A DNA stretch of 64,000 bases, from positions 19,987 through 83,986 of the forward strand of contig JAKLKF010000011.1 of NCBI GenBank assembly GCA_023150805.1. Reading direction: 5' to 3'. A program made the position numbers and the translations under genes. The DNA is from Myxococcota bacterium (GTDB lineage: Bacteria > Myxococcota_A > UBA796 > UBA2385). Of the stretch, positions 4,294 to 30,471 are shown piece by piece (positions within the stretch are counted from its first letter, which is position 1; each line of letters starts with the position of its first letter). A model generated the notes under the pieces. The model saw only the letters and a list, made by a program, of their open reading frames with translations. It ran no database searches and was not told the DNA's origin.

Positions 4294-4356
4294 CCCTAGG
4301 AGGATAGCGGCTTTTCGGGCCGGCGCATGCGACGCAGCGTCCCACTGGGGCCCTGT

Positions 4357-6780: not shown

Positions 6781-6913
6781 GGCAGGCTCCGGAGAGAGGG
6801 TGAACAGATCCGGGGGGCCTCGGATCGGGTGGAGACGTGCCCTCGTCACCCGCGGCCGGGGGTCCCGTCCCGCGCCCGCCACATCCTGCAACACGACACA
6901 ACGGGGCTGAAGC

Positions 6914-8296: not shown

Positions 8297-11229
8297 GCCC
8301 CCCGCGGCTCCAGGTCGGCGGTGCCCTGCGGGAGGGGGCGCTCTACGTGCGGCGCCCGGCGGACACCGACCTGCCCGCGCGCCTCCTCTCGGGAGCCTGG
8401 TGCGCGGTCCTGGCGCCGCGACAGATGGGCAAGTCCTCGCTGCGGGTCCGCGCGGGAGCCGCCCTGGCCGCCGCCGGGCGCCGCGTGCTGCACGTCGATC
8501 TCACGGCGGTCGGGACCGCCAGCCTGGGCGCCGCCGGCTGGCTCTCGGCCTTCGCGGGCGAGGTGGCCGACGAGGCCGGGCTCGATCCACCGCCCTCGGA
8601 TCGTCCGGGCGCCTCGCCGGAACAGGCGCTGCTGCGCTTCTTCGAGCGGGCCCTCCTCCCCGGCGGGCCGACCGTGCTCTTCCTGGACGAGATCGACGCC
8701 CTGCGCAGCCTGGGGCCCGCCGGCGACGCGTTGATGGCCGTGCTCCGTGTCGCCGCCGATCGGCGCGCCCAGGACCCCGCCTGGGGCCAGCTCACCGTCT
8801 GCCTGCTGGGCGCCGCCCCGCTGGCTCGCCTGCAGCGACAAGGTCCGCCGCTGTCCGCGGCCCATCCGGTGCGCCTCGCCGACTTCGGACCGGCCGAGGC
8901 CGCGCAGCTCCGCGCGGCACTGCCGGCCGTGCCTGTCGAACGCGTCCTGCACTGGAGCGGCGGCCACCCCTACCAGACCGCGCGGATCTGCGAGCACCTG
9001 CTCCGGGAGGGCGGAGAGGTGGACGAGGTCGTGCAAGGGCTCTTCCTGCGCGAGGGGCGGGCCCGCGAGGTGGGCCTCGCAGCGGCCGAGCGCGAGCTGT
9101 TGGACGGCGATCCCGCCGAGGGCGCCCGGCTGCGCCTGCTGGGCGCGCTGCACCGGGGCCCCCAGCCCCTGGCCGGCCTCGCGCCCGGGACCGCCGGCGA
9201 CCTGGTGCTGGCGGGCGTCGCCGCCGAGCGTGACGGCCACCTCGCCCTGCGCAGCCCCATCTTCGCGGGCACCTTCGACCTCGCCTGGGTGGCCGAGGCC
9301 CAGCGGCGGCGTCCGCTGGCCCTGCTGGTCGAGCGGTGGCGCGCGGGGGGGCGTCGAGGGATCGACCTGCTGCGCGGTCGGGCGCTGGACGAGGCGCGGG
9401 ACTGGGCCGGCGAGCGCACCGACCTGTCTCCCGACGAGGTGCGCTTCCTGGCGGCCAGCGAGGCGGCGGCCCGCGCGCGCGGGTGGGCGCGCCTGGCCGT
9501 GGGGGCGCTCCTGCTCGCGCTGGTCCTGGCCGGCGCCGGCCTGTTCGTGTTGCAGGCACAGGTGCGCAAGGCGGAGGAGGCCGCGGCCCGGGCCGAGCGC
9601 CTGCGCCAGGCCGCCGCCGCCGTCGCCATGGCCCCCCAGGCCGGACGCGCGCCCGAGGCCCTGGCCGTCGCGCTCTCCACCCTCGCCGAGGGGCCCGTGG
9701 GCACGGCCGCCCTCGCCGAGGTCCTGCGGCACGCCGCGGGCCTGCGCTGGCAGGCCCACGAAGGGCCGGTCGTGCAGGTCGGCTGCGATGGCCAGCAGGC
9801 GCACAGCCGCGGCGCGGACGGCCAGGTCCTTCGCTGGCGCCTGGTTGACGGCGCTGCCCTGGGACCGGGCCAGCTCCCGCCCCCGCCCGCGCCGCCGGCG
9901 TTGGAGATCCTGCCGCGGCGGGTCGCCGAGCTGGGGGGAGCCGCCCTCGCGCCGCCGGTGGACCGGGGCCAGCTCCAGCTCCAGGCCAGGACCGCCGGGG
10001 TCTCGGCAGAGGAGGCCGACCTGATGGTGGCGGTCGACCCGCTCGCCGACCGCGTCCTCCACGCGCTCTACGAGGGTCCGCTGCGTGTCACCACGCGGCA
10101 GGGCGCGCTGCTCGCCACCCTGCCGGGCCACCCGGGTGGTCCGGCGACCTGGGCCGCCTTCCTCCCCGAGGGGCTGCTCACCACCGGCGCCGACGACTCC
10201 TGGCGCCTGTGGGACCCCGGATCGGGCAGGTTGTTGGCGGGCGCGGCACTGGCGCCGAGGCCTCCCACCGACCTGGAGGTCTGCGGGCGCCGCCTGCTCG
10301 CCGGCCACGCCGACGGCACGCTCACGACCTGGGAGATGGTGGCGGGCGCCGGCCGCCTCGCGCTGCCTGGCGCCGCCCTGCGCGCGGGCTGGAGCGCCGA
10401 GGGCGACGCCGTCGTCACCATCGACGAGCAGGGGGCCTTCGCCGCCTGGGCCCGCGCGGACGGCGCCCCCGTCGCGCTGCCCTTGGACCACGCCCTCCGC
10501 GTGCCCGGCCGCATGGCCGCCGACGGCGACCTCCGCTTCGAGGTGGACCGGGACCGCGTCCAGGTCGGCGGCGTGCCGCTTCAGGGGCCGGCCACGCCCT
10601 TGTGGTGCGGCCGCCGGGCCCCTGGCGGCGATCGGGTCGCCATCGCCTGGGGCGAGGGCACCACGACGGTCTGGGAGCGTGCCACCGGCCGGCGCCTGGT
10701 GGACCTGCCTGCCGGGCCGGGCCGCGGCGCCTGCCCCGCCTGGTCGCCGGACGGGCAGTCCCTGGTGCTGGCGGGTCGGGACCACGTGGCCTGGCGGGTC
10801 GACGCCGACGGCGGGCAGCGGGTGGAGCTGCGGGGGCACGAGGGGCTGGTCTACGCCTCGGCCTGGTCTCCCGACGGGCAGGTCATCGCCACCGCCTCCT
10901 TCGATCACACCGCCGCCACCTGGGATCCCCAGGGCCGCCTCCTGCTGCGCCTTCGTGGTCCCGAGAGCCTGCTGCGCGCCCTCACCTTCTCCCCGGACGG
11001 CCAGCGCCTGGCTGCCGGCGGCGACGACGGCCAGGTCTACCTCTGGTCCCTCTCCGACGGCGCCCTGCTCGCGCGCCTCTCGGGCGTGCTGGGGGTCGTG
11101 CGGTCGCTCTCCTTCTCGCCCGACGGCCAGGAGCTGGTCGCGGTCGGGGACGCGCGGATCCCGGTGGTCTTCCCGGCCAGCGCCGACGCGCTGGAGCGGC
11201 TCGCGCGGCTCCGGGCAGGCCTGCGTTGA
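8293..11229 (+). CDS. AAA_35 STAND NTPase with transmembrane helix and C-terminal WD40 repeats (NLR-like)
   Basis: Likely start is GTG 8293 (GTGA overlap). YVRRPAD, Walker A APRQMGKSS, Walker B LFLDEID, WSGGHPYQT, a hydrophobic helix, and GH...WSPDG...WD repeats. Confidence 0.85.
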   Translation: MSPPRLQVGGALREGALYVRRPADTDLPARLLSGAWCAVLAPRQMGKSSLRVRAGAALAAAGRRVLHVDLTAVGTASLGAAGWLSAFAGEVADEAGLDPPPSDRPGASPEQALLRFFERALLPGGPTVLFLDEIDALRSLGPAGDALMAVLRVAADRRAQDPAWGQLTVCLLGAAPLARLQRQGPPLSAAHPVRLADFGPAEAAQLRAALPAVPVERVLHWSGGHPYQTARICEHLLREGGEVDEVVQGLFLREGRAREVGLAAAERELLDGDPAEGARLRLLGALHRGPQPLAGLAPGTAGDLVLAGVAAERDGHLALRSPIFAGTFDLAWVAEAQRRRPLALLVERWRAGGRRGIDLLRGRALDEARDWAGERTDLSPDEVRFLAASEAAARARGWARLAVGALLLALVLAGAGLFVLQAQVRKAEEAAARAERLRQAAAAVAMAPQAGRAPEALAVALSTLAEGPVGTAALAEVLRHAAGLRWQAHEGPVVQVGCDGQQAHSRGADGQVLRWRLVDGAALGPGQLPPPPAPPALEILPRRVAELGGAALAPPVDRGQLQLQARTAGVSAEEADLMVAVDPLADRVLHALYEGPLRVTTRQGALLATLPGHPGGPATWAAFLPEGLLTTGADDSWRLWDPGSGRLLAGAALAPRPPTDLEVCGRRLLAGHADGTLTTWEMVAGAGRLALPGAALRAGWSAEGDAVVTIDEQGAFAAWARADGAPVALPLDHALRVPGRMAADGDLRFEVDRDRVQVGGVPLQGPATPLWCGRRAPGGDRVAIAWGEGTTTVWERATGRRLVDLPAGPGRGACPAWSPDGQSLVLAGRDHVAWRVDADGGQRVELRGHEGLVYASAWSPDGQVIATASFDHTAATWDPQGRLLLRLRGPESLLRALTFSPDGQRLAAGGDDGQVYLWSLSDGALLARLSGVLGVVRSLSFSPDGQELVAVGDARIPVVFPASADALERLARLRAGLR

Positions 11230-11280
11230 GCCGCCGCGCTGCAGCCCGCTTCGTCCCCTCCCGCGCTACCCTGCCTGCCC

Positions 11281-11928
11281 ATGCGCACCTTTCTCCTCGC
11301 CGCCCTGTCCGCCCTGCTCCTCGCCTCCCCCCCGGCCCTGGCCCAGGAGGCGCCCGTGCTCACCGTCGGCCAGCCCGTCGTGCTGGGCCCGCTGGACGCC
11401 GCCGTCGTGCAGGCCGGCGTGGCCCAGCGGCTCAAGGCCGTCGAGCGCTGCTACAGCCCCGCCCTGGCCACCAGCCCCGGCCTGTACGGCCACGTCCGCG
11501 TGCGCCTGGCCATCGGCGCCGACGGCCAGGTCGCCTCCGCCTCCCTGGTCGACCAGACCCTGGGCGACGAGACCGTCGCGACCTGCATCGCCGGCGTGCT
11601 CCAGGTCGTGCCCCTCGCCGCGGGCCCCGCCGGCAGCGAGGCCGTCGCCACCGTGCCCCTGCTGCTCACGCCGGCCCCCGTCATCGTGCCGCGCAGCAAG
11701 CTGGAGGAGCGCCTGCGCGCCTGCGCCCCCGCCGCCGTGGGCGACGCCAGCACCCGCACCGTCCTGGCCCGCATCGACGTCGACGGGGGCCGCGCCACCG
11801 CCGTCGAGGTCAAGCGCCTGGCCCTGGTGGACGAGACCGCCCTGGCCTGCGTGACCCAGGCCCTGCAGCTCGGCCCGCACCGCATGGGCACGGGGAGCCG
11901 GTGGTACCAGTGGGACCTGCCGGAGTAG
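11281..11928 (+). CDS. Exported protein with AgmX/PglI C-terminal (TonB-C-like) domains
   Basis: Signal peptide. VERCYSPALATSPGLYGHVRVRLAIGADGQV ... TCIAGVL resembles myxobacterial AgmX/PglI C-terminal domains. Confidence 0.7.
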   Translation: MRTFLLAALSALLLASPPALAQEAPVLTVGQPVVLGPLDAAVVQAGVAQRLKAVERCYSPALATSPGLYGHVRVRLAIGADGQVASASLVDQTLGDETVATCIAGVLQVVPLAAGPAGSEAVATVPLLLTPAPVIVPRSKLEERLRACAPAAVGDASTRTVLARIDVDGGRATAVEVKRLALVDETALACVTQALQLGPHRMGTGSRWYQWDLPE

Positions 11929-11986
11929 GCGGGGGGGCGACCGCGGCGAGGGGGTCAGCTGGATCCTCGACCGGACTCGCCTTGGT

Positions 11987-14900
11987 ATGCTCCCCCGCCA
12001 GCCATCGGGGTCCCTGTTGTCACTTCCAGAGCCGGGCCAGATCGTCCGCGTTCGTTCCCGCCAGTACCTCGTCGAAGAGGTCTCCCCTGGCGGCGCGCCC
12101 GAATTCGACTCCCGCGTCCGCCTCTCCTGCGTCGACGACGACGCGCAGGGCGACGAGCTGGAGGTCCTGTGGGAGCGTGAGGTCGACGCCGAGCTGCGGG
12201 TCGCCACCTGGCAGGCCGCGCTGCACAAGGGCTTCGACGACCCCAAGCTGTTCAGCGCCTGGCTGCACACCCTCCGCTGGAACTGCGTCACCAGCACGCG
12301 CCCCGACCTGTTCCAAGCCCCCTGGCGCGCCGGCATCGAGGTCAAGGCCTTCCAGCTCGAGCCGCTGCGCAAGGCGCTGCGCCTGCCCCGGGTGAACCTG
12401 TTCATCGCAGACGACGTGGGCCTGGGGAAGACTATCGAAGCCGGCCTCATCCTTCGTGAGCTGTTGATGCGCCAGAAGGTGCGGCGCGTCGTGATCTGCG
12501 TGCCCCCCTCCGTCTCGCTTCAGTGGCGCGACGAGATGGAGAGCCGCTTCGGGCTCGGCTTCGTCGTGCTGGACCGCGAGTACCTGGCCACCTGCCGCCG
12601 CGAGCGAGGCTTCGGCGTGAACCCGTGGACCACCCACACCCGGTTCATCCTCTCGCACGCCCTGCTCCGTGACGAGGCCTACGCGGGCACCCTGCGCGAG
12701 TGGCTCGGCAAGGTCATCCCCGCGCCAGGCACGCTGCTCATCCTGGACGAGGCGCACAACGCCGCACCGGCCAGCGGCGCCCGCTACGCCGTGGACTCCC
12801 GCTTCACCGAGGCCGTCCGCGACATCGCCAAGCGCTTCGAGCACCGGCTGTTCCTGTCGGCCACCCCCCACAACGGGCACAGCAACAGCTTCGCCGCCCT
12901 GCTCGAGATCCTCGACCCGCAGCGATTCTGCCGCGGGGTCAAGACCGGCCCCGCGCTCACCGAGCCGGTGATGGTGCGCCGCCTCAAGGACGACCTGCGC
13001 GAGGTCGAGGGGGGCTTCCCCCGACGCGACGTGGTTCGGGTGGTGCTGGACCGCCTGCCCGCCGATGCGGCCGAGCTGGTCCTGTCCCGCCTGCTCGCCG
13101 AGTACCGAACCGCCCGCGAGCAGCGCCTGGCCGGCCTGCCCCGTGGCCAGGTCAATGCCGCCATGCTGGTGCTCATCTCGCTCCAGAAGCGCCTGCTGTC
13201 CTCGGTCGACGCCTTCGCCCGCACCCTGCGCGCCCACCGGAACCGCTCCGCCCTGGCGCCCACCCCCGCTCCCGCCCCGGTCGCCGCGCAGGCCTCCTTG
13301 ATCCTGTCGGGAGTCACCAGCGACGACGACCGCGCCGAGCTGTCCGAGGACGAGGTGGACGCCGAGGAGGAGGCCGAGGTCGAGCGCGCCACCGCGGCCA
13401 CAGGGCTCGACCTGCCCGCCCGCGAGCGGGAGCTGCTGGCCCGCATGTCCGCGATCGCCGAGGAGGCCCGCCACCAGGCCGACGCCAAGGTCCGCTGGCT
13501 GCACGACTGGGTCCGGCGCGAGATGTTCGACGGTGGCGCCTGGAACGGACGGCGTGTGGTCGTCTTCACCGAGTACGCCGACACCCGGCGCTACCTGGTC
13601 ACGCAGCTCGAAACCCTGCTCGGTGAGGCAGCTCGCGGGCGCATCCTGACCTTCCACGGGGGCATGAACGAGGCCGCGCGAGAGGACGTGAAGCGCGCCT
13701 TCAACACCAGCCCCGCCGAACACCCCGTCCGCATCCTGGTCGCCACCGACGCCGCCCGCGAGGGTGTGAACCTCCAGAACCACTGCGCCGACCTGGTGCA
13801 CTTCGACGTGCCCTGGAACCCCAGCCGGATGGAGCAGCGCAACGGCCGCATCGACCGCAAGCTCCAGCGGGCCGAGGTGGTGCGTTGCCACTACTTCGTC
13901 ATGCCGCAGCGGGCCGAGGACCGCGTGCTGGACGTGCTCGCCGACAAGACCCGGACCATCCGCGAGGAGCTGGGCGTCTACCCGCCGCTGCTGGACGGCC
14001 TGGTGGAGAAGGCCCTGGCCCAGGGCATTCGCCACTCCGACACGGAGCGTCTCGCGGACGATATCCGGGGCCTGCGCCCCCCCCGGACCGCCGTCGACGA
14101 AGAGCTGGAGTCTGTTCGCGTGCGACGCAACGGCCTGCACGCGCAGCTCCAGGAGCTTCGGGGCCTGCTCGACCTGTCCAAGGAGTGGCTCGGGCTCGAC
14201 GACGACGCCTTCCGGGACGCGGTCTCGGCCTCGCTTCGGGTGCTGCAGGTCCCCGCGTTGCGCCCGATGGACACCTCTCGGGTGGCCGACGACCCGGCGC
14301 GCACCCCCTGGGAGTTCCCGGCGCTCGACCGCACCGCGGCCGGCCACGGCTGGGCCGACACGCTCGACGCCCTGCGCGTGCCTCGCCGCCGCGACCAGCG
14401 CCTGGCCGACTGGCGCCGTGACGCGCCGCTGCGCCCCATCGTGTTCCGCGACCCGGGCAGCCTGGACGGCAAGGTCGTCCACCTGCACCTGGAGCACCGC
14501 GTCGTGCAGCGCCTGCTCGGGCGCTTCATGTCCCAGGGCTTCGTCCACGACGACCTGTCGCGCGCCGCCGTCGTGCTGTCCGACGAACCCTCACCCTACG
14601 TGCTCGTGCTGGGGCGCCTGTCGCTCTACGGCGACCACGCCGCGCGCCTGCACGACGAGCTGCTGATCGCCGCCGCAGAGTGGGTCGAGCCCGAGCTGCG
14701 CGCGCGCAAGCTCCGACCGATGGGCGAGGAGGACCGCCGACAGACCCTGGCCCTGCTGGAGCGCTCGCTCCTGCACGCCCGCCCCGTCCCCCCGGGGGTG
14801 AGCGCCCGCCTGGCCGAGATCGCCCCCCGCGACGTCGCCGAGCTGGAGGGCCACCTCCGCCGCCGTGCGGAGACCCGCGCCAACGCCGCCGTCCGCGAGC

Positions 14901-15202
14901 TGGGCAAGCGCGCCGAGGCCGAGGCCAGGGACATGGTCGGCATCCTGCGCGAGCAGCGCAAGCACATCGAGGCCACCCTGGCCGACTGGCGCAGCAAGGA
15001 GCAGGAGCGGCAGACCTTCTTCGACTTCCCCGAGGCGGAGCGCCGCCAGGTCGCCGCCGACAAGCGCTACCAGGAGCAGCGCCTCAGGGACATCGACGCC
15101 GAGCTGTCCACCGAGCCCGAGCGCATCCGGCGGACCTACACGGTCAAGGCGCGGCGCGTCGAGCCGGTGGGCATCGTGTACCTCTGGCCCCGGACGGGGT
15201 AG
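11987..15202 (+). CDS. drmD: DISARM SNF2-like helicase DrmD
   Basis: ADDVGLGKT, LILDEAHN, SATPHNG, ATDAAREGVNLQ and WNPSRMEQRNGRIDR. First gene of a drmD-drmMI-drmA-drmB-drmC series. The start could be TTG 12017. Confidence 0.85.
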   Translation: MLPRQPSGSLLSLPEPGQIVRVRSRQYLVEEVSPGGAPEFDSRVRLSCVDDDAQGDELEVLWEREVDAELRVATWQAALHKGFDDPKLFSAWLHTLRWNCVTSTRPDLFQAPWRAGIEVKAFQLEPLRKALRLPRVNLFIADDVGLGKTIEAGLILRELLMRQKVRRVVICVPPSVSLQWRDEMESRFGLGFVVLDREYLATCRRERGFGVNPWTTHTRFILSHALLRDEAYAGTLREWLGKVIPAPGTLLILDEAHNAAPASGARYAVDSRFTEAVRDIAKRFEHRLFLSATPHNGHSNSFAALLEILDPQRFCRGVKTGPALTEPVMVRRLKDDLREVEGGFPRRDVVRVVLDRLPADAAELVLSRLLAEYRTAREQRLAGLPRGQVNAAMLVLISLQKRLLSSVDAFARTLRAHRNRSALAPTPAPAPVAAQASLILSGVTSDDDRAELSEDEVDAEEEAEVERATAATGLDLPARERELLARMSAIAEEARHQADAKVRWLHDWVRREMFDGGAWNGRRVVVFTEYADTRRYLVTQLETLLGEAARGRILTFHGGMNEAAREDVKRAFNTSPAEHPVRILVATDAAREGVNLQNHCADLVHFDVPWNPSRMEQRNGRIDRKLQRAEVVRCHYFVMPQRAEDRVLDVLADKTRTIREELGVYPPLLDGLVEKALAQGIRHSDTERLADDIRGLRPPRTAVDEELESVRVRRNGLHAQLQELRGLLDLSKEWLGLDDDAFRDAVSASLRVLQVPALRPMDTSRVADDPARTPWEFPALDRTAAGHGWADTLDALRVPRRRDQRLADWRRDAPLRPIVFRDPGSLDGKVVHLHLEHRVVQRLLGRFMSQGFVHDDLSRAAVVLSDEPSPYVLVLGRLSLYGDHAARLHDELLIAAAEWVEPELRARKLRPMGEEDRRQTLALLERSLLHARPVPPGVSARLAEIAPRDVAELEGHLRRRAETRANAAVRELGKRAEAEARDMVGILREQRKHIEATLADWRSKEQERQTFFDFPEAERRQVAADKRYQEQRLRDIDAELSTEPERIRRTYTVKARRVEPVGIVYLWPRTG

Positions 15203-15210
15203 GGACACCC

Positions 15211-16317
15211 ATGCTGAAGACCGTCCACTTCCAGTCCATCAAGGCCCTCCAGGACGTCCGCCTGGACCTGGCCCCCCTGACCTTCCTGGTGGGGCCCAAC
15301 GGCTGCGGGAAGAGCACCCTGCTGGACCAGATCGAGGTCCTCTGCGGGTGTAGCCACCACGATCCCGGGTCTCGGCATGCGCTCGGCCGCGCCGGTGAGG
15401 TCCTCAGCGCGGTCGACCCACCATCGCTTCGGACCGAAGGCGACAGCGACGGATCGATGAGCTGGCAGGGGCAGGACAGCTCGGGCGCCACCTTCTCCAT
15501 CGAGTGCCCTGCGGGACCCGCGAAGGGCTGGTATGACAGGGTGAAGCTCGTCGCGAGTGCGGACGGGCGCGCGCTGGCCATGGATGTCAATGAGCTACGG
15601 CAGGAGAAGCGAGCGGAGTTCGATGATCTCCTGTCTTCCCACTTGTCGTGGTGGTCCCAGCGGCTGCGACTGATCCCCCAGTACATCGCCGCTCCGGTGG
15701 ACGTTCGGGAGGAGAGGCTCGATCCCAGCGGCTACGGCCTGGCCTCCATCCTGACCGCATTCGCTTTGAACGACCAGCAGGCCTACGCCGCCCTCCAGGC
15801 CGACATGGCAGCCATCGTGCCCGAGTTCCAGCGCATTCACATCTCGAAGGTCGAGATCGAGGGCAAGGACAAGGTGAAGCACGGCGGCGTCTCGCTTGGC
15901 ATGGTCTTTCGGGGTGCCGGACGTCGCCCCGCGAGCCAGATCAGCGATGGCACCCTCGTCGCCCTGGCGCTGCTCACCGCCACCCACAACCGGGAGATGC
16001 CGCCCCTGGTGCTCATGGACGACATCGACCATGGCCTGCACCTCGGCGCGCAGATGACCCTCATCCGAGCGATCCGCAAGGTCATGGAGGTCCGCCCCGA
16101 TCTGCAGGTGGTGTGCACCACCCACTCGCCCTACCTGTTGGATGCGGCGAAGCCGGATGAGGTACGGGTCATGGCGCTCGACGCCAACGGCCACACCGTG
16201 GTCCGCCCACTCACCGCCTACCCCGACTTCGAGCGCCACCATCGCGGGCTCCAGACCGGCGAGTTCTGGGCGACCTTTGGGGAAGGCTGGGTCGCAGACA
16301 CGGGGGGCGTAGCGTGA
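15211..16317 (+). CDS. ABC-type (AAA_21-like) ATPase, cargo inside DISARM
   Basis: ATG 15211. Walker A GPNGCGKST, signature-like ISDGT, Walker B LMDDIDHGLH, H-loop TTHSPY. Confidence 0.85.
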   Translation: MLKTVHFQSIKALQDVRLDLAPLTFLVGPNGCGKSTLLDQIEVLCGCSHHDPGSRHALGRAGEVLSAVDPPSLRTEGDSDGSMSWQGQDSSGATFSIECPAGPAKGWYDRVKLVASADGRALAMDVNELRQEKRAEFDDLLSSHLSWWSQRLRLIPQYIAAPVDVREERLDPSGYGLASILTAFALNDQQAYAALQADMAAIVPEFQRIHISKVEIEGKDKVKHGGVSLGMVFRGAGRRPASQISDGTLVALALLTATHNREMPPLVLMDDIDHGLHLGAQMTLIRAIRKVMEVRPDLQVVCTTHSPYLLDAAKPDEVRVMALDANGHTVVRPLTAYPDFERHHRGLQTGEFWATFGEGWVADTGGVA

Positions 16318-17129
16318 GTGAAGGGGGGGTGCCGGTCTACGTCGTGGGGGAGGACCAGGTCCACAGGGCGCTCGGGATGGCCCTGGTGGACGCGGTGATC
16401 TCGAAGCTCGCGCACGACCGCGACGCCGACTGGGTCGATCCGGACACCGTCCGGCGCTGGTCGGCCCTGGCCGAGCCGCCGGGCATCGCCGAGAACCGCC
16501 GCTGGGGCAACATCAACGGTCCGTCCACGATCCGCCTGCACGGGCGCCTCGACGGCGCTCCGTACCTCCCGGGCGCTCGCCAGCTCCGAAGCGCCGTCGT
16601 CGAGCACGCGCGGGCCGAGCGCTCGCCGGGCCTGCTGGTGCTCCTGCGCGACACGGACGGGGATCCCGAGATCGCCCGCGGCGCACAGCAGGTGCGCGAC
16701 TGGATCGACAGTCGCCACGATCTCCCCCCAACGGCCAGCGGCTGCCCCCACCGCGACGCCGAGGCCTGGTTCTTCGCCGCAAGTGGCCTGACCGGTGAGG
16801 AAGCGCAGCGACTCGACCAGGCCTGCAAGGTGCTGAGCTTCGACCCGACCCGCCAGCCCGAGCGGCTCACCTCCAGCCCCAACGACGCCCGGACCGATGC
16901 CAAGCGCGTCGTCCGGTTCGTCCTCCTGGCCGAGGGAAGCAAGCTGGCGAAGGGGACCCCGGCCAGCCGGCCCCCGTCGCCCGACCAGGCGGACGCCCTG
17001 GCCGAGCGGGTGGCATCCGACCTCGACCAACTGGCGTCATACGACGACTGTGGCCTTGCACCCTTCGTCGACGGCCTGGAGAAGGCCCTTGTCGTCGCCC
17101 TCGACAGCCACCTCCCGCGGGCACCATGA
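16314..17129 (+). CDS. TOPRIM-like putative nuclease (DUF4276/RloB/AriB-like), partner of the upstream ATPase
   Basis: YVVGEDQ (TOPRIM Glu), LLRDTDGD (DxD) and DAEAWF. 4-bp overlaps on both sides. Confidence 0.55.
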   Translation: MSEGGVPVYVVGEDQVHRALGMALVDAVISKLAHDRDADWVDPDTVRRWSALAEPPGIAENRRWGNINGPSTIRLHGRLDGAPYLPGARQLRSAVVEHARAERSPGLLVLLRDTDGDPEIARGAQQVRDWIDSRHDLPPTASGCPHRDAEAWFFAASGLTGEEAQRLDQACKVLSFDPTRQPERLTSSPNDARTDAKRVVRFVLLAEGSKLAKGTPASRPPSPDQADALAERVASDLDQLASYDDCGLAPFVDGLEKALVVALDSHLPRAP

Positions 17130-20100
17130 GCGACCCCTCCACCCGCGCCCACCTCGCCTGGCTCGGCTACGTCCAGCCGGTGGGCCTGGTCGTGTCTCCC
17201 CCGGCGCTGGTGTCCGCCCAGTGCGCCCCTCCGCTCGACCTGGTCGCTCGACAGGCCAGGCTGCTGGAGCTGTGCCCGGACGGCCGGCTGGGCGACCTCG
17301 CCGCCTTCGCCCAGGGGCTGCTGGACTGGCAGCCAGGGGATCTGGTCCAGGCCGGGGACCTGGCCGACCTGGAGGTCCCCCTCCCCGAGTACAACGACGC
17401 CCTGCGGCCAGGCTGGGCGGTGCCGAAGCCCGATGGCGAGCCCGGTTGGCAGATGCTGATCGTCCGCGTGCCCGGCGACACCGACCTGGACGTCGCCCCC
17501 GAGGACGCCACACCCGACCGGGCGGGCGCCGGCTGGCGGGCCAGCCCCCAGGCCCGCATCGAGCGCCTGCTCCGCGAGCGCGAGGTGCCGGTCGGCCTGC
17601 TGTGCAACGACCACGTGCTGCGCCTGGTCTACGCCCCCAAGGGCGAGACCTCCGGCCACTTGAGCTTCGAGCTGGCCGCGATGCGGGCGGTGGCCGGCCG
17701 GCCCATCCTGGGCGCACTGTGCATGCTGCTCGGCGCCGAGCGACTGTTCGTGGTGCCCCCGAACAAGCGCCTGCCCCGCGTGCTGGAGGAGAGCCGCAAG
17801 TACCAGAACGAGGTCTCCACCCGGCTGGCTGAGCAGGTGCTGGCCGCCCTGGACGAGCTGGTCCGCGGCTTCGAGCTGGCGGACGCGGACCGCAAGGGCG
17901 ACCTGCTGCGCCACGCGCTGACCGTCGACCCCCAGCACGTCTACGGTGGCCTGATCACCGTGCTCCTGCGGCTGGTCTTCCTGCTCTATGCCGAGGAGCG
18001 GGACCTGATGCCCGCCGACCCGGTGTACGTGCAGCACTACTCGGTGGGCGGCCTGTACGAGCGGCTGCGTGCCGACGCCGGGCGGTACCCGGACACGATG
18101 GACCAGCGCTTCGGAGCCTGGGCCCGGCTGGTGTCGCTCTTCCGCCTGGTCCACGACGGCGGTGGCGACCAGGCCCTGCGCCTGCCCGCGCGCAGGGGCT
18201 CGCTCTTCGACCCCGAGGTCTACCCCTTCCTGGAGGGGCGCCCCTACCGCCAGATCACCAGCGAGCAGGCGCCCATCCAGGTGCCGCGGGTGCCCGACGG
18301 CGTGGTGTGGAAGGTGCTCGACGCGCTCTTGATGCTCAAGAACGGGGACCACGCCGAGCGCGTGGCCTTCCGCTCATTGGACGTCGAGCAGATCGGCTCG
18401 GTCTACGAGGCGATGATGGGCTTCGAGCTGAAGCGGGCCAGCGCCCCCAGCCTGGCCCTGCGCCCCAAGCGGATCGTCGTGAGCCTGCTGCACCTGCTGC
18501 ACACCAAGCCCGCCGACCGGGCCAGGGTGCTCAAGGCCGAGGCGGACTGCGGGCTGACGGGCACCGCCGCGACGGCGCTCAAGGACGCGCGCACCGCCGA
18601 GGAGCTGGCCGCCGCGCTGTCCCGCAAGGCCGTGGACGGGCGCATCATCGCCGCCGGCGGGCTGTACCTCCAGCCCGGGGAGGAGCGGCGCCGGTCGGGC
18701 TCGCACTACACCCCCCGCAGCCTGACCGAGCCCATCGTGCGCACGACGCTCCGCCCGGTGCTGGAGGCGCTCGGCCCCCGGCCCCGCCCCGAGCAGATCC
18801 TGGGGCTCAAGGTCTGCGACCCGGCCATGGGCAGCGGCGCCTTCCTGGTCGAGGCCTGCCGCCAGCTCGGCGCCGCACTGGTCCAGGCCTGGTCGCAGCA
18901 CCAGGCCACGCCCCCGATCCCCACGGACGAGCAGCCGGTGCTGCACGCCCAGCGGCTGGTGGCCCAGCGCTGCCTGTACGGCGTGGACAAGAACCCCTTC
19001 GCCGTCAGCCTGGCCAAGCTCTCCCTGTGGCTGGTCACCCTGGCCCGGGACCACGCCTTCACCTTCGTCGATCACGCGCTCAAGCACGGCGACTCGCTGG
19101 TGGGGCTGAGCCGCCGGCAGATCGGGCGCTTCGACTGGGGCGAAGACGACGCCGCGCTGCCGCCGCTGCTGGCCTGGATTCAGCGGCAGACGGCCTCGGC
19201 GAAGGCCCACCGCGCGGCCGTGCAGGGGGCCGGCGAGGGCGAGGAGGCGCGGCAGCGCGCGGAGTGGAAGGAGGCCGAGGACGCGGTCGAACCGGCCCGG
19301 GTGGCCGGAGACCTGTGCGTGGCCGCCTTCTTCGCCGCGGACAAGGACAAGGCGCGGGAGGAGCAGCGGCGGGAGCACCAGGCGCTGCTCGGGCGTTGGC
19401 GCGAGGGGGACCCGCAGGCAAGGGTCGGGGTCGTGCAGGTCCGGGATGGGCTGCGACGGAGCGGGGTGGTGCCCTTTCACTGGGAGGTGGAGTTTCCGGA
19501 GGTGTTCGATGGGGGCGGGTTCCATGCGGTGGTGGGGAATCCGCCGTTCTTGGGGGGAAAGAGGATCAGCACCGCTCATGGTGAGCAATTTCGCGACTGG
19601 CTTGTAACGGTACACCCTGACTCCAGCAGCAACTCGGATCTCGTTGCCCACTTCTATCGCCGGGCGTTTGGGCTTCTGCGCACTGGCGGCGCCTTCGGAC
19701 TGATCGCAACCAATACCATTGCCCAGGGTGACACTCGCGCAACCGGGCTGCGATGGATCCGCCAACAGGGTGGGAGTATCTATCACGCGACGCGGCGACT
19801 GAGTTGGCCCGGGTTGGCCGCCGTTGTGGTCAGCGTGGTGCATGTCGCGAAGGGCAGCACGGTCAAGCCGGCCCGGCTTGACGACAAGAAGGTCGATCAT
19901 GTCACCGCCTTCCTGTTCCCGAGCGGTCCAGACGACGACCCGGCGGCACTGGCAGCGAACGAAGGGCAGAGCTTCATCGGATTCCAGTTGACGGGTACCG
20001 GATTCACGTTCGACGACGAGAACGAGGAGGCGTCGTCCTTGGATGAAATGCGCCGGCTGGTTGCGGCAAACTCGCGCAACTCCGAACGCATCTTCCCGTA

Positions 20101-21076
20101 CATTGGTGGGCAGGAAGTCAACGAGAGCCCGACCCACGCTCATCGGCGATACGTGATCAACTTCGGCGAGCTGACGGAGGAGGAGGCGAGAAGGTGGCCG
20201 GAGCTGATGGCGATCATTGAGGACAAGGTGAGGCCATTCCGTCAGCAGGTGAACCGTGCCCGTCACCGTCAATTTTGGTGGCAGTTTGGTGAGACGCGGT
20301 CTGGCCTTGTGAAGGCTGTCAAGGGGTTGAGGCGCGTGCTGGTCGCTTGTATCGTGTCAAACAAGCCGAGCTTTGCCTTTCTTCCGGCAAACATGGTCTT
20401 TTCCCACAAGCTCGTCGTCTTCCCCCTCGACTCCTTCGCCGCGTTCGCCCTGCTCCAATCGCGCATTCACGACCTTTGGGCGCGCATGTTCTCGTCGACC
20501 ATGAAGGACGACCTAAACTACGCCCCCGCGGACTGCTTCGAGACCTTCCCCTTCCCCCCCGACTGGACCACTTCGCCCGCCCTCGAAGCCGCCGGCCAGG
20601 CCTACTACGACTTCCGCGCCGCCCTGATGGTCCGCAACAACCAGGGCCTCACCGCCACCTACAACCGCTTCCACGACCCCGACGAGACCGACCCCGACAT
20701 CCTCGAACTCCGCCGCCTGCACGCCGCCATGGACCGCGCCGTGCTCGACGCCTACGGCTGGACCGACATCCCCACCGACTGCGAGTTCCGCCTCGACTAC
20801 GAAGACCCCGAGGACGAGGACGACGACCCGGCCAGCAGCCCCCGCCGGAAGAAGAAGCCCTGGCGCTTCCGCTGGCCCGAGGCCGTCCACGACGAGGTCC
20901 TTGCCCGCCTGCTCGCCCTGAACCAGGAGCGCGCCGAGGCCGAGCGCAAGCTGGCCGCGCCCGAGAAGAAGGCCCGGCCCACTGCCGCGGCCCCCCGGCG
21001 CGGCCGAGCCAAGAAGGGCGCCGCGCCCCCCGCCCCCGACCTGTTCACCTCTAGAAAGCCAGGAACTGGTGACTGA
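17126..21076 (+). CDS. drmMI: DISARM N6-adenine DNA methyltransferase DrmMI (Eco57I/type IIG-like)
   Basis: Motif I DPAMGSGAFL, motif IV VGNPPF, GSHYTP, and its position within the DISARM gene order. Confidence 0.85.
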   Translation: MSDPSTRAHLAWLGYVQPVGLVVSPPALVSAQCAPPLDLVARQARLLELCPDGRLGDLAAFAQGLLDWQPGDLVQAGDLADLEVPLPEYNDALRPGWAVPKPDGEPGWQMLIVRVPGDTDLDVAPEDATPDRAGAGWRASPQARIERLLREREVPVGLLCNDHVLRLVYAPKGETSGHLSFELAAMRAVAGRPILGALCMLLGAERLFVVPPNKRLPRVLEESRKYQNEVSTRLAEQVLAALDELVRGFELADADRKGDLLRHALTVDPQHVYGGLITVLLRLVFLLYAEERDLMPADPVYVQHYSVGGLYERLRADAGRYPDTMDQRFGAWARLVSLFRLVHDGGGDQALRLPARRGSLFDPEVYPFLEGRPYRQITSEQAPIQVPRVPDGVVWKVLDALLMLKNGDHAERVAFRSLDVEQIGSVYEAMMGFELKRASAPSLALRPKRIVVSLLHLLHTKPADRARVLKAEADCGLTGTAATALKDARTAEELAAALSRKAVDGRIIAAGGLYLQPGEERRRSGSHYTPRSLTEPIVRTTLRPVLEALGPRPRPEQILGLKVCDPAMGSGAFLVEACRQLGAALVQAWSQHQATPPIPTDEQPVLHAQRLVAQRCLYGVDKNPFAVSLAKLSLWLVTLARDHAFTFVDHALKHGDSLVGLSRRQIGRFDWGEDDAALPPLLAWIQRQTASAKAHRAAVQGAGEGEEARQRAEWKEAEDAVEPARVAGDLCVAAFFAADKDKAREEQRREHQALLGRWREGDPQARVGVVQVRDGLRRSGVVPFHWEVEFPEVFDGGGFHAVVGNPPFLGGKRISTAHGEQFRDWLVTVHPDSSSNSDLVAHFYRRAFGLLRTGGAFGLIATNTIAQGDTRATGLRWIRQQGGSIYHATRRLSWPGLAAVVVSVVHVAKGSTVKPARLDDKKVDHVTAFLFPSGPDDDPAALAANEGQSFIGFQLTGTGFTFDDENEEASSLDEMRRLVAANSRNSERIFPYIGGQEVNESPTHAHRRYVINFGELTEEEARRWPELMAIIEDKVRPFRQQVNRARHRQFWWQFGETRSGLVKAVKGLRRVLVACIVSNKPSFAFLPANMVFSHKLVVFPLDSFAAFALLQSRIHDLWARMFSSTMKDDLNYAPADCFETFPFPPDWTTSPALEAAGQAYYDFRAALMVRNNQGLTATYNRFHDPDETDPDILELRRLHAAMDRAVLDAYGWTDIPTDCEFRLDYEDPEDEDDDPASSPRRKKKPWRFRWPEAVHDEVLARLLALNQERAEAERKLAAPEKKARPTAAAPRRGRAKKGAAPPAPDLFTSRKPGTGD

Positions 21077-21078
21077 CC

Positions 21079-22635
21079 ATGGCCAACACGCAAATACTCG
21101 CCCTCACGGTTGAACGGTTCAAGAGCTACGAGAAAGCAACGCGCATCGACCTGAAACCGCTGACGGTGGTGCTGGGCCGGAACAGCGGCGGCAAGAGTAC
21201 ACCGGACCCCCGCAGCGAAGTACCGATCAAGCTGGAGGGCTTGGTCGAGGCATTCAACTTGCGCGAGTTGACCTGGGGATGGCCGCCCGCCAACGGTCGG
21301 GTGCCTGGGCCGATCGTGGAGATTGAGTGGACCTCTGATGTCGACATTGCTCAGGCGCGCCATGTGGGCCGAAACCCCGACCCGGAGAATTTGGCGAAAC
21401 ACGCACACGTTGAGTGGTTTCGCGACCTTCCCCCGCGCGCGAACCTTCGAAGTGCCTTGCGGATCGAGACCGCAGAGCATCAAGGAGTCACGCGAATCGA
21501 ACGGCTGACGGTTACGGCAAAGTGCGTGAATGGTGAGCCGTCGTTCGTGTTGACCCAAGAAGGCGGTAGTTGGAAGCTCAGCTACAGGGGTGACCTCGCG
21601 GGGAGACTCGCGGTGGAAGTTGACCACTTCATCCCATACCTCCGGATCGACAGGTCTGACGTTGGCCCGCGTAGCCGGGAGCGCGCGTGGTTCAACGCCT
21701 GGCTCATCTTGTTCGCGCAGCCGCTCGAATCGCTCAAGCGCGCGCTCACCGACCTGCAATACCTTGGGTCAACGCGGGTGCCGCCGCCTTCGCTGTTCCG
21801 TCCGGTGACGGTGGCCCCGCAGGAGATCGGAGTCAGCGGCGAGTTCGCCGCGCAGCTCCTGCACCGGCGCGAACGGGACGTGGTCCACTACCTCCCCGCC
21901 CTCGTGGTCACCGAGGCCTCGGCCTCGATTCCCGAGAACGTCCTCGCACTGCCTCTCGTCGACGCGGTCAACTCCGTGCTGGCAGACCTCTCCATCGGGA
22001 GCCCGGTGAAGGTAGAGGTTGTTCAGGAGATCGGGTTCCGCCTTCTGTTCGGGAATGCGAGCCTCACCCATGTAGGACGCGGGCTGACCTACCTCCTTCC
22101 GCTCGTGGAGTTGGGGTTGTTTGCAGACCCGCTCCGATTCTCAGGTAGTGCGGCGGAGACGCCCCTTGCCGACTACCTTGCGGCCTGTGAGAGTCACTCA
22201 CACATCGCTTTGGAAGAGCCCGAGGCCCACCTGCACCCCAAGGTCCAGAGCCGGTTGGCGCACTGGCTCGTCAGCCTTGCCCTATCGAGGCGACGCCTCA
22301 TCGTCGAGACGCACAGCGATCACCTCGTCCGGCGCTTGAGGGGCCTGGCTGCCAGAGCCGGGGTCGGCAGCCCGCTGGAGAAGTGGCTGCTGGAGAACGT
22401 CGCCGTGATTGAAGTCGAGCAGGATGCGCAGGGACGATCGACCGTACGAACGGGCGGACTCACTGCGGAGGGGGGGATCACGGAGTCCTGGCCTGCCGAC
22501 TTCATGGATGAGGCAAGCGCCGAGGATTCCGCGATCTTCTACGCGGGGCTTGCGAAGGCCCCTGTTGAGTCCCAGGCGCCAGTCGCGTCACCATTCATTC
22601 ATGACGAGGGTGACGAGGATGAGGTGGAGCCGTGA
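21079..22635 (+). CDS. ABC-type ATPase with C-terminal DUF3696-like region (apparent deletion after Walker A)
   Basis: Walker A GRNSGGKST, Walker B ALEEPEAHLHP, H-loop VETHSDH, C-terminal GGITESWPADFMDE. Confidence 0.8.
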   Translation: MANTQILALTVERFKSYEKATRIDLKPLTVVLGRNSGGKSTPDPRSEVPIKLEGLVEAFNLRELTWGWPPANGRVPGPIVEIEWTSDVDIAQARHVGRNPDPENLAKHAHVEWFRDLPPRANLRSALRIETAEHQGVTRIERLTVTAKCVNGEPSFVLTQEGGSWKLSYRGDLAGRLAVEVDHFIPYLRIDRSDVGPRSRERAWFNAWLILFAQPLESLKRALTDLQYLGSTRVPPPSLFRPVTVAPQEIGVSGEFAAQLLHRRERDVVHYLPALVVTEASASIPENVLALPLVDAVNSVLADLSIGSPVKVEVVQEIGFRLLFGNASLTHVGRGLTYLLPLVELGLFADPLRFSGSAAETPLADYLAACESHSHIALEEPEAHLHPKVQSRLAHWLVSLALSRRRLIVETHSDHLVRRLRGLAARAGVGSPLEKWLLENVAVIEVEQDAQGRSTVRTGGLTAEGGITESWPADFMDEASAEDSAIFYAGLAKAPVESQAPVASPFIHDEGDEDEVEP

Positions 22636-23558
22636 TAGCGCTACTGGACCCGGCACTGTTCCTGCGCCCTGGACGCCCTGGGATTCCCCTGGCCGCCCAA
22701 GATGAGGCGGCACTTCTGACGGAGTTGAGGGGAGTGCTCGCGGCCATGAGGATTGCGGGAGCGGACCTCGCGGCAGTGGACGGGTATTGGAGCCCGCTTT
22801 GGACTGAGATCATCGGCCCGCTTCAACGAAGGATGAAGACGGTGGATGGGCCAAAGCTGTTGCAGGAGCTGCGAAAGGCGGGCAGGACATACGAGGGGCT
22901 GGGACCCGTGGCCCCAGGTACGAGAATATGGGGGTTTCGGGCCATGTTCGGTCATGGCTCTGGTGTTCCGGCGGAGTGGGAGGAACGGCTCGCAGTAGCC
23001 GCTGCCCGGCTGGTCGCCATCGGGCGCCCGTTGCTGGTCCTGACCCGGCTCGTCGAAGGTCGCAACTTGCACACCCACATGGGCAAGGCGCACTCCTCCA
23101 TCGCTGAGGTCACCCGATGGCGGCTCTCAGTTCGCCCGCCTCGTTCGGCCGCCAGTACACACATCCCCTGCGTGCGCGCACCCTCGCAGATTCAGCGTCC
23201 CTGGACGGTGCGGTTCGATCCCCGCCTCCCCACCGACCGCGACCTTGTTCGATACCCCTTCTGCCTCCCACAACGGTGGGACCGCCGCGACATCGTCGCA
23301 GTTCGCACCTTCTCCTCTGCACCGGCCTGGGTGGACGCGGCTGGGCGAGAATGGGAGCGCCCGAACATCCCCGAGGGGCGAGGACACCACTGGGACGTCT
23401 TCCTCGATTCTCCTCATGACGTCGGCCGAGTCGGGGTTGACCAGCTCAACATCGTGGAGTTCGGAGCGCCACCGCGCGAGGGCACACCGGGAACGATTCA
23501 CCACGTTCCAGCGGCGAAGGCCGGCCGGGTGACGGACGTAGGTTGGGGCTGTCCATGA
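22632..23558 (+). CDS. Hypothetical protein, possible C-terminal RNase-toxin-like domain
   Basis: GTGA overlap with the ATPase. C-terminal WVDAAGREW ... GHHWDV ... LNI motif. Confidence 0.6.
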   Translation: MIALLDPALFLRPGRPGIPLAAQDEAALLTELRGVLAAMRIAGADLAAVDGYWSPLWTEIIGPLQRRMKTVDGPKLLQELRKAGRTYEGLGPVAPGTRIWGFRAMFGHGSGVPAEWEERLAVAAARLVAIGRPLLVLTRLVEGRNLHTHMGKAHSSIAEVTRWRLSVRPPRSAASTHIPCVRAPSQIQRPWTVRFDPRLPTDRDLVRYPFCLPQRWDRRDIVAVRTFSSAPAWVDAAGREWERPNIPEGRGHHWDVFLDSPHDVGRVGVDQLNIVEFGAPPREGTPGTIHHVPAAKAGRVTDVGWGCP

Positions 23559-23628
23559 GCGCAACTCATCTCGTGGCGAGCTACTGCCACTGCCTCCAGT
23601 GGGCCGCTATCAGCCGAGGAGATCTGTC

Positions 23629-24447
23629 ATGGAAGTCCTGAGCAGCACCGACATCTCCCGCGAGGTCCTCTCCCTCATCGAGGGCTCGCGCCAGTTCCTC
23701 CTGTTGATCTCCGCCTACTTCGACCCATGGGACCGGCTGTCCACCGAGATCAAGCGCGCTGCCACCCGGCCGGGGCTCAAGGTCCTATTGCTGCTCCGCG
23801 GCGGCGACGACCAGAAGAAGCACGCCGAAAAGGCCACCGATCTGGAGCGCGTGGGGGTCAAGGTCCAGTACCTGACCCGCCTGCACGCCAAGGTCTACAT
23901 CAGCGAGTCCCAGGCCATCGTGACCTCGATGAACCTGGTCAAGGCCTCAGCGCTGGACTCCTGGGAGATCGCGATTCGCATCGACCGCGACAAGGACGGC
24001 GAGGCCTACGCCGAGGTGGTCAAGCATGCCAAGGAGCTGCTGACGCGCTCGCGGGACGAGACGACCATCGCGGGGCGGGCGAAGGCCGACGCCCAGGTGG
24101 ACTCGCTGGCTTCGTTGTTCACCCCGGGCAACCTGGGCGCGGTCGCCAAGGTCGTCGAGGCCCTGGTCGGCGCGACCTCGTCGGGCTCCGGCCCCATGAA
24201 GAAGAGCAAGGCGGCGACGCGCAAGACCTCAGGCGCCCGGAAGAGCGCGGCGCCCACTGGTACCTGCATCCGCTGCGGAGATGACATCGCGTTGAACCCC
24301 GACAAGCCCCTATGCGGCTCCTGCTACAAGGAGTGGGCCACCTACGGCAACGCCGACTACAAGGAGAGCTACTGCCACGCCTGCGGGGACGAGCACGTCA
24401 CGACGATGGCCAAGCCCTTGTGCAGGGCCTGCTGGCGGGCCGCATGA
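23629..24447 (+). CDS. PLD-family (HKD) nuclease with C-terminal tandem zinc ribbons
   Basis: LHAKVYISE ... TSMNL (HxKxxxxE ... SxN). Four CxxC pairs: CIRC, CGSC, CHAC, CRAC. Confidence 0.8.
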   Translation: MEVLSSTDISREVLSLIEGSRQFLLLISAYFDPWDRLSTEIKRAATRPGLKVLLLLRGGDDQKKHAEKATDLERVGVKVQYLTRLHAKVYISESQAIVTSMNLVKASALDSWEIAIRIDRDKDGEAYAEVVKHAKELLTRSRDETTIAGRAKADAQVDSLASLFTPGNLGAVAKVVEALVGATSSGSGPMKKSKAATRKTSGARKSAAPTGTCIRCGDDIALNPDKPLCGSCYKEWATYGNADYKESYCHACGDEHVTTMAKPLCRACWRAA

Positions 24448-29674: not shown

Positions 29675-30471
29675 CGGGCCATCTGCACGAAGTGCCCGAG
29701 GGAATCCTGCTCGCGGTGATGCATGCGCTGCGGATGGGAAAGCTCAAGCCACCCTTCACGCGGGCCAGCGTCGAGCACATCGTCGGCGGTCCCCCCTGGC
29801 TCGCTGACGAGCTGTCCAGCCTGGTGGCCCAGGGCCTCTCTCCGGCCGCGATGGCCTGGGGGATCTCCTTGCTGGCCGAGGCCAAGGCCGAGGCGCGCTT
29901 TCACCGCGCCGGCGTCGAGTTGACCTGGACCGGCCCCCCCGACGTCATCACCGAGACCCGCGACACCGGCGCCGTCGCCCGCCAGCTCTTCGCGGCGGCC
30001 AGGACGGACCTGTTGGTCAGCACCTTCGTTGTCGATGGGGGCGACAAGGCCGCCGCTCTGCTCGGTGTGCTCCGCGACCGGCTGGTGCAGCTTCCCGACC
30101 TGCGTGTGCGCTTCTTCCTCAACTTCGCGCGCGCCCACGGCGACACCCGACCCAGCGCGGACCTGCTCGCAGGGCACGCTCGCCGCTTCCTGGAGGATGT
30201 CTGGCCCTGGACCCCCCGGCCCGAGGTCTTCTACGACCGCCGCGCGCTCGATCCCACCCCGGGCCCGCGGTCCTGCCTGCACGCCAAGTGCATCGTCCAG
30301 GACGAGGTGAAGACGCTGATCACGTCGGCCAACCTGACCGAGGCGGCGCAGGAGCGGAACATCGAGGCCGGCGTGCTCGTCACGGATGGTGGCTTCGCGC
30401 GGGAGGTCGTGCTGCAGTTCGAGCGGTTGGTGGCGGCGGGGGTGTTGGTGAGGATGGGGGAGGGGCGGTGA
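29671..30471 (+). CDS. drmC: DISARM phospholipase D nuclease DrmC
   Basis: LHAKCIVQD ... TSANLT ... NIEAG HKD motif, directly downstream of drmB. Confidence 0.9.
   Translation: MTGHLHEVPEGILLAVMHALRMGKLKPPFTRASVEHIVGGPPWLADELSSLVAQGLSPAAMAWGISLLAEAKAEARFHRAGVELTWTGPPDVITETRDTGAVARQLFAAARTDLLVSTFVVDGGDKAAALLGVLRDRLVQLPDLRVRFFLNFARAHGDTRPSADLLAGHARRFLEDVWPWTPRPEVFYDRRALDPTPGPRSCLHAKCIVQDEVKTLITSANLTEAAQERNIEAGVLVTDGGFAREVVLQFERLVAAGVLVRMGEGR

Follow-up and report, generated by a model that had tools for sequence, protein, structure and literature searches.

Organization of the Gene Pair

The DNA analysed here, hereafter the window, is a stretch of 64,000 nucleotides (nt) from a Myxococcota bacterium (GenBank assembly GCA_023150805.1, contig JAKLKF010000011.1, positions 19,987–83,986 of the forward strand), having a GC content of about 72%. 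It carries an operon which, judging from its profile matches, is a complete class 1 DISARM defence system, with the five core genes lying in order on one strand (Table 1). Between the first two of them, drmD and drmMI, lie two further open reading frames (ORFs), coding for an ABC-type ATPase (P0001) and for a smaller protein (P0002, the partner), which are the subject of this study.

The three junctions of the pair are tight. The drmD stop codon (nt 15200–15202) is followed by a short spacer, the ATPase and partner genes overlap by 4 nt at the sequence GTGA (nt 16314–16317), and the partner gene in turn overlaps drmMI at the sequence ATGA (nt 17126–17129). Both start codons are matched by homologues beginning with ATG at the aligned position, as exemplified by MSEGGTPFYVVGEDE in P0005. 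The GC content at third codon positions (GC3) is 0.87 in the ATPase gene and 0.89 in the partner gene, in the range usual for coding frames in the window. Since homologues of both proteins are numerous and in conserved order, with the ATPase gene directly 5' of the partner in every locus examined, the two ORFs cannot be put down to chance in so GC-rich a genome (72% GC) and are real, translationally coupled genes. A scan of nt 11500–17600 did not reveal any promoter-like or terminator-like site, which at 72% GC says only that the region is consistent with a single operon; the pair is probably co-transcribed with DISARM.

Table 1. Features of the DISARM locus and of the embedded gene pair (nucleotide positions are those of the window, residues those of the ATPase).
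Feature	Position (nt)	Residues	Strand	Remarks
ABC-type ATPase gene (P0001), AAA_21/SMC-like, 368 aa	15211–16317		+	ATG start
Partner gene (P0002), 271 aa	16314–17129		+	GTG start
8-nt spacer, drmD stop to ATPase ATG	15203–15210		+	letters GGGACACC, read directly
Hypervariable ATPase insert	15331–15630	41–140	+	between Walker A and Q-loop; candidate sensing surface
ATPase Walker A		28–36		GPNGCGKST
ATPase Q-loop candidate		154–157		LIPQ
ATPase signature		244–248		ISDGT
ATPase Walker B	16006–16029	266–271		LVLMDD
ATPase H-loop		303–307		TTHSP
drmD, SNF2 helicase, 1071 aa, left frame gene	11987–15202		+	PADLOC DrmD E = 0, full length; Pfam SNF2-rel_dom, Helicase_C
drmMI, N6-adenine methyltransferase, 1316 aa, right frame gene	17126–21076		+	PADLOC DrmMI E = 0
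drmA	24312–27803		+	PADLOC DrmA 1e-284
drmB	27752–29674		+	NCBIfam DrmB_fam 5e-164
drmC	29671–30471		+	NCBIfam DISARM_DrmC_I 1.7e-48

Sequence Features of the ATPase

The ATPase matched the Pfam family AAA_21 with an E-value of 1.8e-27. In its Walker B motif the Asp is followed by a second Asp, replacing the usual catalytic Glu, and this DD is common to all 10 close homologues and to 19 of the 24 partner-paired ATPases found across the phylum (loci L047–L070), in which the motif reads hhhhDD[ILV][DE]xxLH instead of the usual hhhhEEPE. The EEPE form is retained in three loci, whose partner protein matched the family profile weakly and partially. As an Asp stands in for the catalytic Glu, the sequence suggests a slow, switch-like ATPase.

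The segment between Walker A and the Q-loop (residues 41–140) was found to be hypervariable, with a mean pairwise identity of 16–25% among eight close homologues against 65–79% at the catalytic motifs, and its GC3 is 0.80 compared with 0.88–1.00 in the rest of the gene.

In PADLOC the top matches were HEC-01A (8.7e-31, in two stretches), PDC-M07A and mad3 (3.9e-25, in a single full-length stretch). The top NCBIfam match was MADS3, both for P0001, scoring 81 bits against an equivalog cut-off of 420 bits, and for all close homologues searched (3/3). When the ATPase was compared by phmmer with the sequences of the PDB at E ≤ 1e-3, the best matches were PtuA, an unnamed AAA ATPase and TsOLD, an OLD nuclease, and no PARIS/AriA chain was retrieved at this threshold.

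Sequence Features and Predicted Fold of the Partner Protein

The partner carries the acidic motifs G12-E13-D14, D113-T-D115 and E150-A-W152, followed by K197. Residues D113, D115, W152 and K197 are invariant in both alignments produced (18 and 71 sequences), E150 is nearly invariant in the smaller and invariant in the larger, and E13 is kept in at least 90% of the 71 sequences.

A preliminary description of this DNA had proposed that an ABC ATPase is coupled here to a small protein with acidic motifs, as in defence modules of the ATPase/TOPRIM-like kind, that drmD and drmMI enclose the pair, and that the 271-aa protein has GED, DxD and ExW motifs. All of this is borne out, the flanking genes being matched by PADLOC as DrmD and DrmMI (both E = 0) and the motifs being present and conserved. 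Its claim of an intact ABC ATPase motif set holds in that every motif could be located and fails at the catalytic Glu of Walker B, which is an Asp.

Family models were of little help in classifying the partner. No Pfam match beyond noise was obtained for P0002 even at E ≤ 10, with the DUF4276 model (PF14103) among those giving no match, and there was no NCBIfam match; the sole PADLOC match was a weak one to HEC-01B (2.4e-3), covering 76 residues (89–164). The same HEC-01B model was matched by 12 of the 18 close partner homologues, at best with 1.4e-6. A word-indexed search had retrieved these 18 relatives only, and a profile of them, run against 1.84 billion representatives, recovered 1007 proteins at a threshold of E ≤ 1e-3, a number that fell to 664 at E ≤ 1e-10, indicating that the family, of approximately 1000 clusters at 50% identity, is large and merely without a model. 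Among 71 sampled relatives, DUF4276 was matched by four (best 1.6e-4, below the gathering score), HEC-01B by eight and MADS4 by one (0.002).

The same genome also carries a canonical HEC-01 pair on contig C362 (locus L014, nt 1300–3140, minus strand), in which a 416-aa HEC-01A (1.2e-77), having the usual EE in Walker B, overlaps a 197-aa HEC-01B (1.9e-38) matching DUF4276 at 0.002.

Profile-profile alignment with hhalign linked the partner family to this genuine HEC-01B with a probability of 89% (E = 2e-6, 94 columns), the alignment spanning the DxD, ExW, DP and DAK motifs, and to a set of 28 DUF4276 proteins with P-values of 0.003 (local) and 6e-6 (global), the motifs being colinear. On account of these two alignments and of the colinear motifs, the partner is classified, from its sequence, as a remote homologue of HEC-01B/DUF4276. 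When the PDB was searched with hidden Markov models (HMMs) of the family, profiles A1 and A2, nothing meaningful was returned. HEC-01B has been described as TOPRIM-like (10.1101/2024.01.29.577857) and DUF4276/Mad4 has been placed in the Toprim superfamily (PMC12065111). The partner is presumed to be a metal-dependent nuclease.

The AlphaFold2 model of the partner, built from 18 sequences, had a predicted local distance difference test score (pLDDT) of 93 and a predicted template modelling score (pTM) of 0.92. Its N-terminal core consists of four strands (residues 6–12, 47–50, 107–111 and 140–143), each followed by a helix, with E13 just past strand 1, D113-T-D115 past strand 3 and E150/W152 past strand 4. 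In the predicted structure, this placement of acidic residues matches that required of a TOPRIM domain. The top Foldseek matches were generic three-layer alpha/beta domains (NifH, LDH and Argonaute, the last read as the MID domain), mostly with TM scores of about 0.25. No TOPRIM protein was among the top PDB matches, in a PDB copy ending in April 2026; the MAD4 structure, which appeared in October 2026, is probably too recent to be in the copy searched. A few primase/topoisomerase entries appeared in BFVD at E = 0.2–0.7 and were not counted as evidence. A TOPRIM fold of the partner is therefore likely but unconfirmed, being called from the motif placement in the model and from remote homology, and not from structural matches.

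Relationship to Known Systems

Pairs of an ATPase and a TOPRIM-like protein embedded in DISARM, BREX and Hma have already been published (10.1101/2024.01.29.577857). By sequence, the nearest families of the window pair are HEC-01 and MAD3/MAD4, and the pair is homologous to HEC-01 yet lies outside its models. HEC-01 (PADLOC-DB; Payne et al. 2024, 10.1101/2024.01.29.577857; Hma-embedded candidate 01) shares with it the order of genes, the ATPase gene preceding that of a small TOPRIM-like partner, as well as the location within methylation-based defence operons. The differences are in the proteins themselves. The genuine HEC-01 of L014 matches its models over the full length (1.2e-77 in one stretch and 1.9e-38), whereas the window pair does so at 8.7e-31 in two pieces and at 2.4e-3 over 76 residues. 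The 271 aa of the window partner compare with about 197 aa in HEC-01B, the additional length being made up of an insert of about 37 residues after strand 2 and of a longer C-terminal helical part. Moreover, the EE following Walker B in genuine HEC-01A is DD in the window ATPase.

MAD3-MAD4 of the MADS system likewise comprise a separate ABC-type ATPase and a Toprim-like (DUF4276-type) nuclease in a methylation-based defence operon, where they assemble into a 2:2 heterotetramer, with ATPase activity and DNA cleavage both needing the assembly (PMC13662399). In MADS, mad3 and mad4 are each needed for defence, and deletion of mad5 succeeded only alongside that of mad2 or mad3 (10.1101/2023.03.30.534895; PMC13662399). 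The conserved residues of the window partner may correspond to the MAD4 pocket (D12, D81/E83, E119/E121 and K164; PMC13662399), a resemblance inferred from order and spacing alone. Unlike the MADS proteins, the window ATPase scores far below the MADS3 cut-off and P0002 does not match MADS4; the host operon is DISARM, with no mad1-mad8 operon, and the pair is absent from most DISARM loci.

PARIS (PMC11464382) resembles the pair in being split into an ABC ATPase and a small nuclease, in having a variable ATPase insert and in its conceptual sensor-effector role. It differs in that the window partner is not a DUF4435 protein and in that the window ATPase, at 368 aa, falls well short of the 53–55 kDa of AriA. 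The preliminary description had assigned the pair to the PARIS/RloAB type and had suggested HMM comparison as a check, and this comparison speaks against the assignment. Neither DUF4435/AriB nor RloB was matched by P0002 at E ≤ 10 or by any of the 71 relatives at E ≤ 0.01 in Pfam, and no PADLOC AriB model was matched by the partner or its relatives. The PADLOC matches labelled AriA came from models 304 and 373 positions long, and were read as generic AAA_21/AAA_15 matches because model lengths and scores mirror those of Pfam AAA_21 and AAA_15. DUF4435 was present in only 2 of 251 phylum genomes, too rare for a profile to be built, so that the AriB comparison was limited to the Pfam and PADLOC HMMs.

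PARIS is activated by anti-restriction proteins such as Ocr and cleaves tRNA, and the possibility was considered that the pair works in the same manner, the ATPase sensing an anti-restriction protein (an Ocr/ArdA-type DNA mimic disabling DISARM) and freeing the nuclease, with abortive infection as the outcome. The general architecture of a separate ABC ATPase and a small nuclease is indeed that of PARIS, the hypervariable segment that separates Walker A from the Q-loop corresponds in position to the AriA IS1, which has been proposed to recognize triggers (PMC11464382), and the pair has been repeatedly captured inside a methylation-based system. Triggering by anti-defence proteins also has precedent in several ABC-ATPase systems (Payne et al., 10.1101/2024.01.29.577857). 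On the other hand, homology to AriB/DUF4435 or to AriA-specific features is missing, and most family members are not near methyltransferase-based systems, so that guarding such systems cannot be the general role of the family. Taken together, we consider this explanation quite unlikely.

Distribution and Cargo Status of the Pair

The distribution of the pair was analysed in representative genomes of one phylum (401 genomes) and in metagenome contigs. The partner family was found in 32 of the 401 genomes (8%), with a P0001-like ATPase directly preceding the partner at about 24 loci. Neither DrmD nor DrmMI was present in the 1.5-kb flanks of these loci, and no N6_Mtase or Eco57I domain was detected within 10 kb of them, the nearest lying 22 and 26 kb away. 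A general association of the family with restriction-modification systems was considered and ruled out, there being no methyltransferase within 10 kb of the standalone members. Standalone pairs also include L010, L011, L076 and L079, in part located amid housekeeping genes (L010, L011 and L076), and one genome (G285) contains five partner-family copies on five contigs.

The arrangement of the window, with the pair between DrmD and DrmMI, recurs in loci L001, L004/L005, L008, L009, L077 and L078. The ATGA overlap with drmMI could be read in L001, L004, L008, L009 and L077, and the spacers between drmD and the ATPase gene in other filled loci are 8–15 nt long, with G-rich runs resembling ribosome-binding sites. 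A more distant DISARM-like locus (L006, nt 1–18731; DrmD 38% and DrmMI 42% identical) likewise has cargo, about 15 kb of it, at this junction, lying between a DrmD-like and a DrmMI-like gene and including the pair, an EH_Signature protein and an SNF2 protein (read as Zorya-like) and three genes without known family.

In canonical class 1 DISARM drmD directly abuts drmMI, whereas the window operon carries two intercalated cargo blocks. Within the phylum, DrmD abuts DrmMI in 26 of 29 DrmMI loci, i.e., the junction is empty. The closest empty-junction DISARM among the representative genomes is L090, with DrmD 76% identical to that of the window and the N-terminal 400 residues of DrmMI 79% identical; at its junction (nt 1450–1540), which reads ...LWPRTG* TGA-CC-ATG, 2 nt separate the stop from the start codon, thus providing a natural before-insertion comparator. 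The same DrmD C-terminus, ...LWPRTG*, is kept at filled and empty junctions alike. Because 26 of the 29 phylum junctions are empty, the pair is regarded, from these sequence comparisons, as cargo accessory to DISARM, inserted exactly between the stop and the start codon.

Divergence of the Pair from Its DISARM Frame

When filled DISARM loci were compared with each other, identity amounted to 73–88% for DrmD and 67–95% for DrmMI, and to 42–56% for the ATPase and 46–55% for the partner. In a maximum-likelihood tree the embedded members fell into two groups interleaved with standalone ones, with moderate supports (83–94). The window pair clusters with the standalone P0005, P0006 and P0007 and with the embedded P0009, and its nearest relatives of known context, 58% identical, are standalone. 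These sequence data would be explained either by divergent alleles having been swapped at a conserved site or by very fast evolution in place, and both scenarios are typical of genes contacting phage products.

Instead of being an independent system, the pair might be an integrated arm of DISARM, namely its nuclease on unmethylated DNA, acting together with DrmD, DrmMI and DrmABC as MAD3-MAD4 do within MADS. This possibility has the MADS precedent on its side, given the requirement for mad3 and mad4 and the conditional deletion of mad5, together with the use of one junction and of the ATGA overlap with drmMI, shared by the window with L001, L004/L005, L008, L009, L077 and L078, and with the lack of promoter-like or terminator-like sites between the pair and DISARM. 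It is opposed by the 26 of 29 phylum DISARM loci having no gene at the junction, by the mostly standalone occurrence of the family with no methyltransferase within 10 kb, by the standalone context of the window's closest known-context relatives (58%), and by the pair diverging far faster than the DISARM frame, which would be unusual for a core catalytic subunit. An integrated restriction arm is thus rather improbable.

Other Cargo and Neighbouring Genes

The second cargo block of the window operon lies between drmMI and drmA (nt 21079–23558) and encodes a 518-aa ABC ATPase (PADLOC NsnB/Menshen, 1.3e-39) coupled to a 308-aa protein without family match. The GC3 of these two genes (0.72–0.78) is below that of the DISARM genes (0.90–0.94), which suggests a more recent acquisition. 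Just 5' of drmA an extra PLD-like gene is present (nt 23599–24447; PLDc_2 1.1e-9, weak DrmC match at 4.7e-6), separate from the genuine drmC. About 750 bp upstream of drmD there is a gene (nt 6829–11229) coding for a large STAND-type NTPase (AAA_35) that carries WD40 repeats at its C-terminus.

Two of the other filled loci differ from the window downstream of the pair. In L004 (nt 14811–20441), drmMI is followed by a gene for a 1876-aa protein with a protein-kinase domain, in place of the second cargo of the window, and in L009 (nt 3261–7227) drmMI is split into ORFs of 865 and 423 aa, followed by a PDDEXK_4 gene.

Proposed Function

The explanation we favour, with somewhat more than even confidence, on the basis of sequence comparison and of analogy with characterized systems, takes the two genes to form an autonomous defence module, ATPase plus nuclease, of the HEC-01/MAD3-MAD4 kind (split OLD-like), which travels as cargo in DISARM and shares its expression. 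In its favour are, for the kind of module, the HEC-01 and MADS3 matches of the ATPase and the alignments of the partner family; for autonomy, the standalone loci; for the cargo status, the empty junctions; and for diversification, the divergence of the pair, the hypervariable insert and the interleaving of embedded and standalone members on the tree. As to how such a module might work, analogy is our only guide to the complex, the nuclease activity and its substrate, the trigger and the defence itself. The ATPase would dimerise on ATP and hold the small nuclease in a hetero-oligomer, as in MAD3-MAD4 and PARIS, and the Asp-for-Glu replacement in Walker B might make it a slow, switch-like enzyme. 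The fast-evolving insert (residues 41–140) could be the surface recognizing a phage-derived cue, and recognition would license a metal-dependent nuclease centre formed by E13, D113, D115, E150 and K197. The nuclease might then cut DNA, as in MAD3-MAD4, or RNA, as in AriB.

Several observations weigh against an autonomous defence module. On the structural side, Foldseek searches did not find any match at E ≤ 1e-3, either with the full partner model against PDB and BFVD or with a core-only model (residues 1–160, pLDDT 86) against PDB, and hhalign of the A2 profile with nine OLD-like TOPRIM regions gave P = 0.29, the DxD alone being aligned. The partner misses the thresholds of Pfam, NCBIfam and PADLOC. 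With an Asp at the position of the catalytic Glu, ATP hydrolysis might be poor or absent. At least seven loci have the pair at one junction and coupled through ATGA, which could reflect a functional tie to DISARM instead of mere passage. Finally, no defence by HEC-01 was seen when it was first assayed (10.1101/2024.01.29.577857). A separate study, in which T4, T5 and T7 were tested, found E. coli B to be protected by one HEC-01 representative against at least one of these phages (10.1101/2024.09.26.614923).

Two of these points, the weak hydrolysis suggested by the DD of Walker B and the first HEC-01 assay, would also fit a module with no part in defence, namely a RecF/SMC-like ATPase module for DNA maintenance or of the selfish addiction type, riding in defence islands, as would the standalone copies amid housekeeping genes (L010, L011 and L076) and the five copies in one genome. 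Against it stand the homology to HEC-01 and to MAD3/MAD4, with published reports of defence or nuclease activity (PMC13662399; 10.1101/2024.09.26.614923), the other defence-type cargo housed at the DISARM junction of L006, and the rapid diversification typical of conflict genes; we therefore hold such a non-defence role to be very unlikely.

A more specialized variant can be conceived within the HEC-01-like lineage, which may have independently reached a PARIS-like anti-anti-restriction role as a dedicated guard of DISARM, its hypervariable insert sensing phage inhibitors of DISARM and triggering an abortive nuclease. If true, it would explain why divergent alleles, in each case in translational coupling with drmMI, were captured at one drmD|drmMI junction beside a conserved frame, and yet in our judgement it has only a slim chance of being correct.

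Pairs that combine an ABC ATPase with a TOPRIM-like protein in methylation-based defences are known as a kind from HEC-01, MAD3-MAD4 and PARIS. What is new here is a large sister family missed by Pfam, NCBIfam and PADLOC, having as hallmarks the DD of Walker B and a partner of 270 aa. New as well are a clean natural comparison between empty and filled drmD|drmMI junctions and the combination of a conserved DISARM frame with fast-diverging cargo, whose variability is focused in one ATPase insert. The pair thus offers a tractable setting in which to ask whether an embedded module protects the system around it or is just a passenger.

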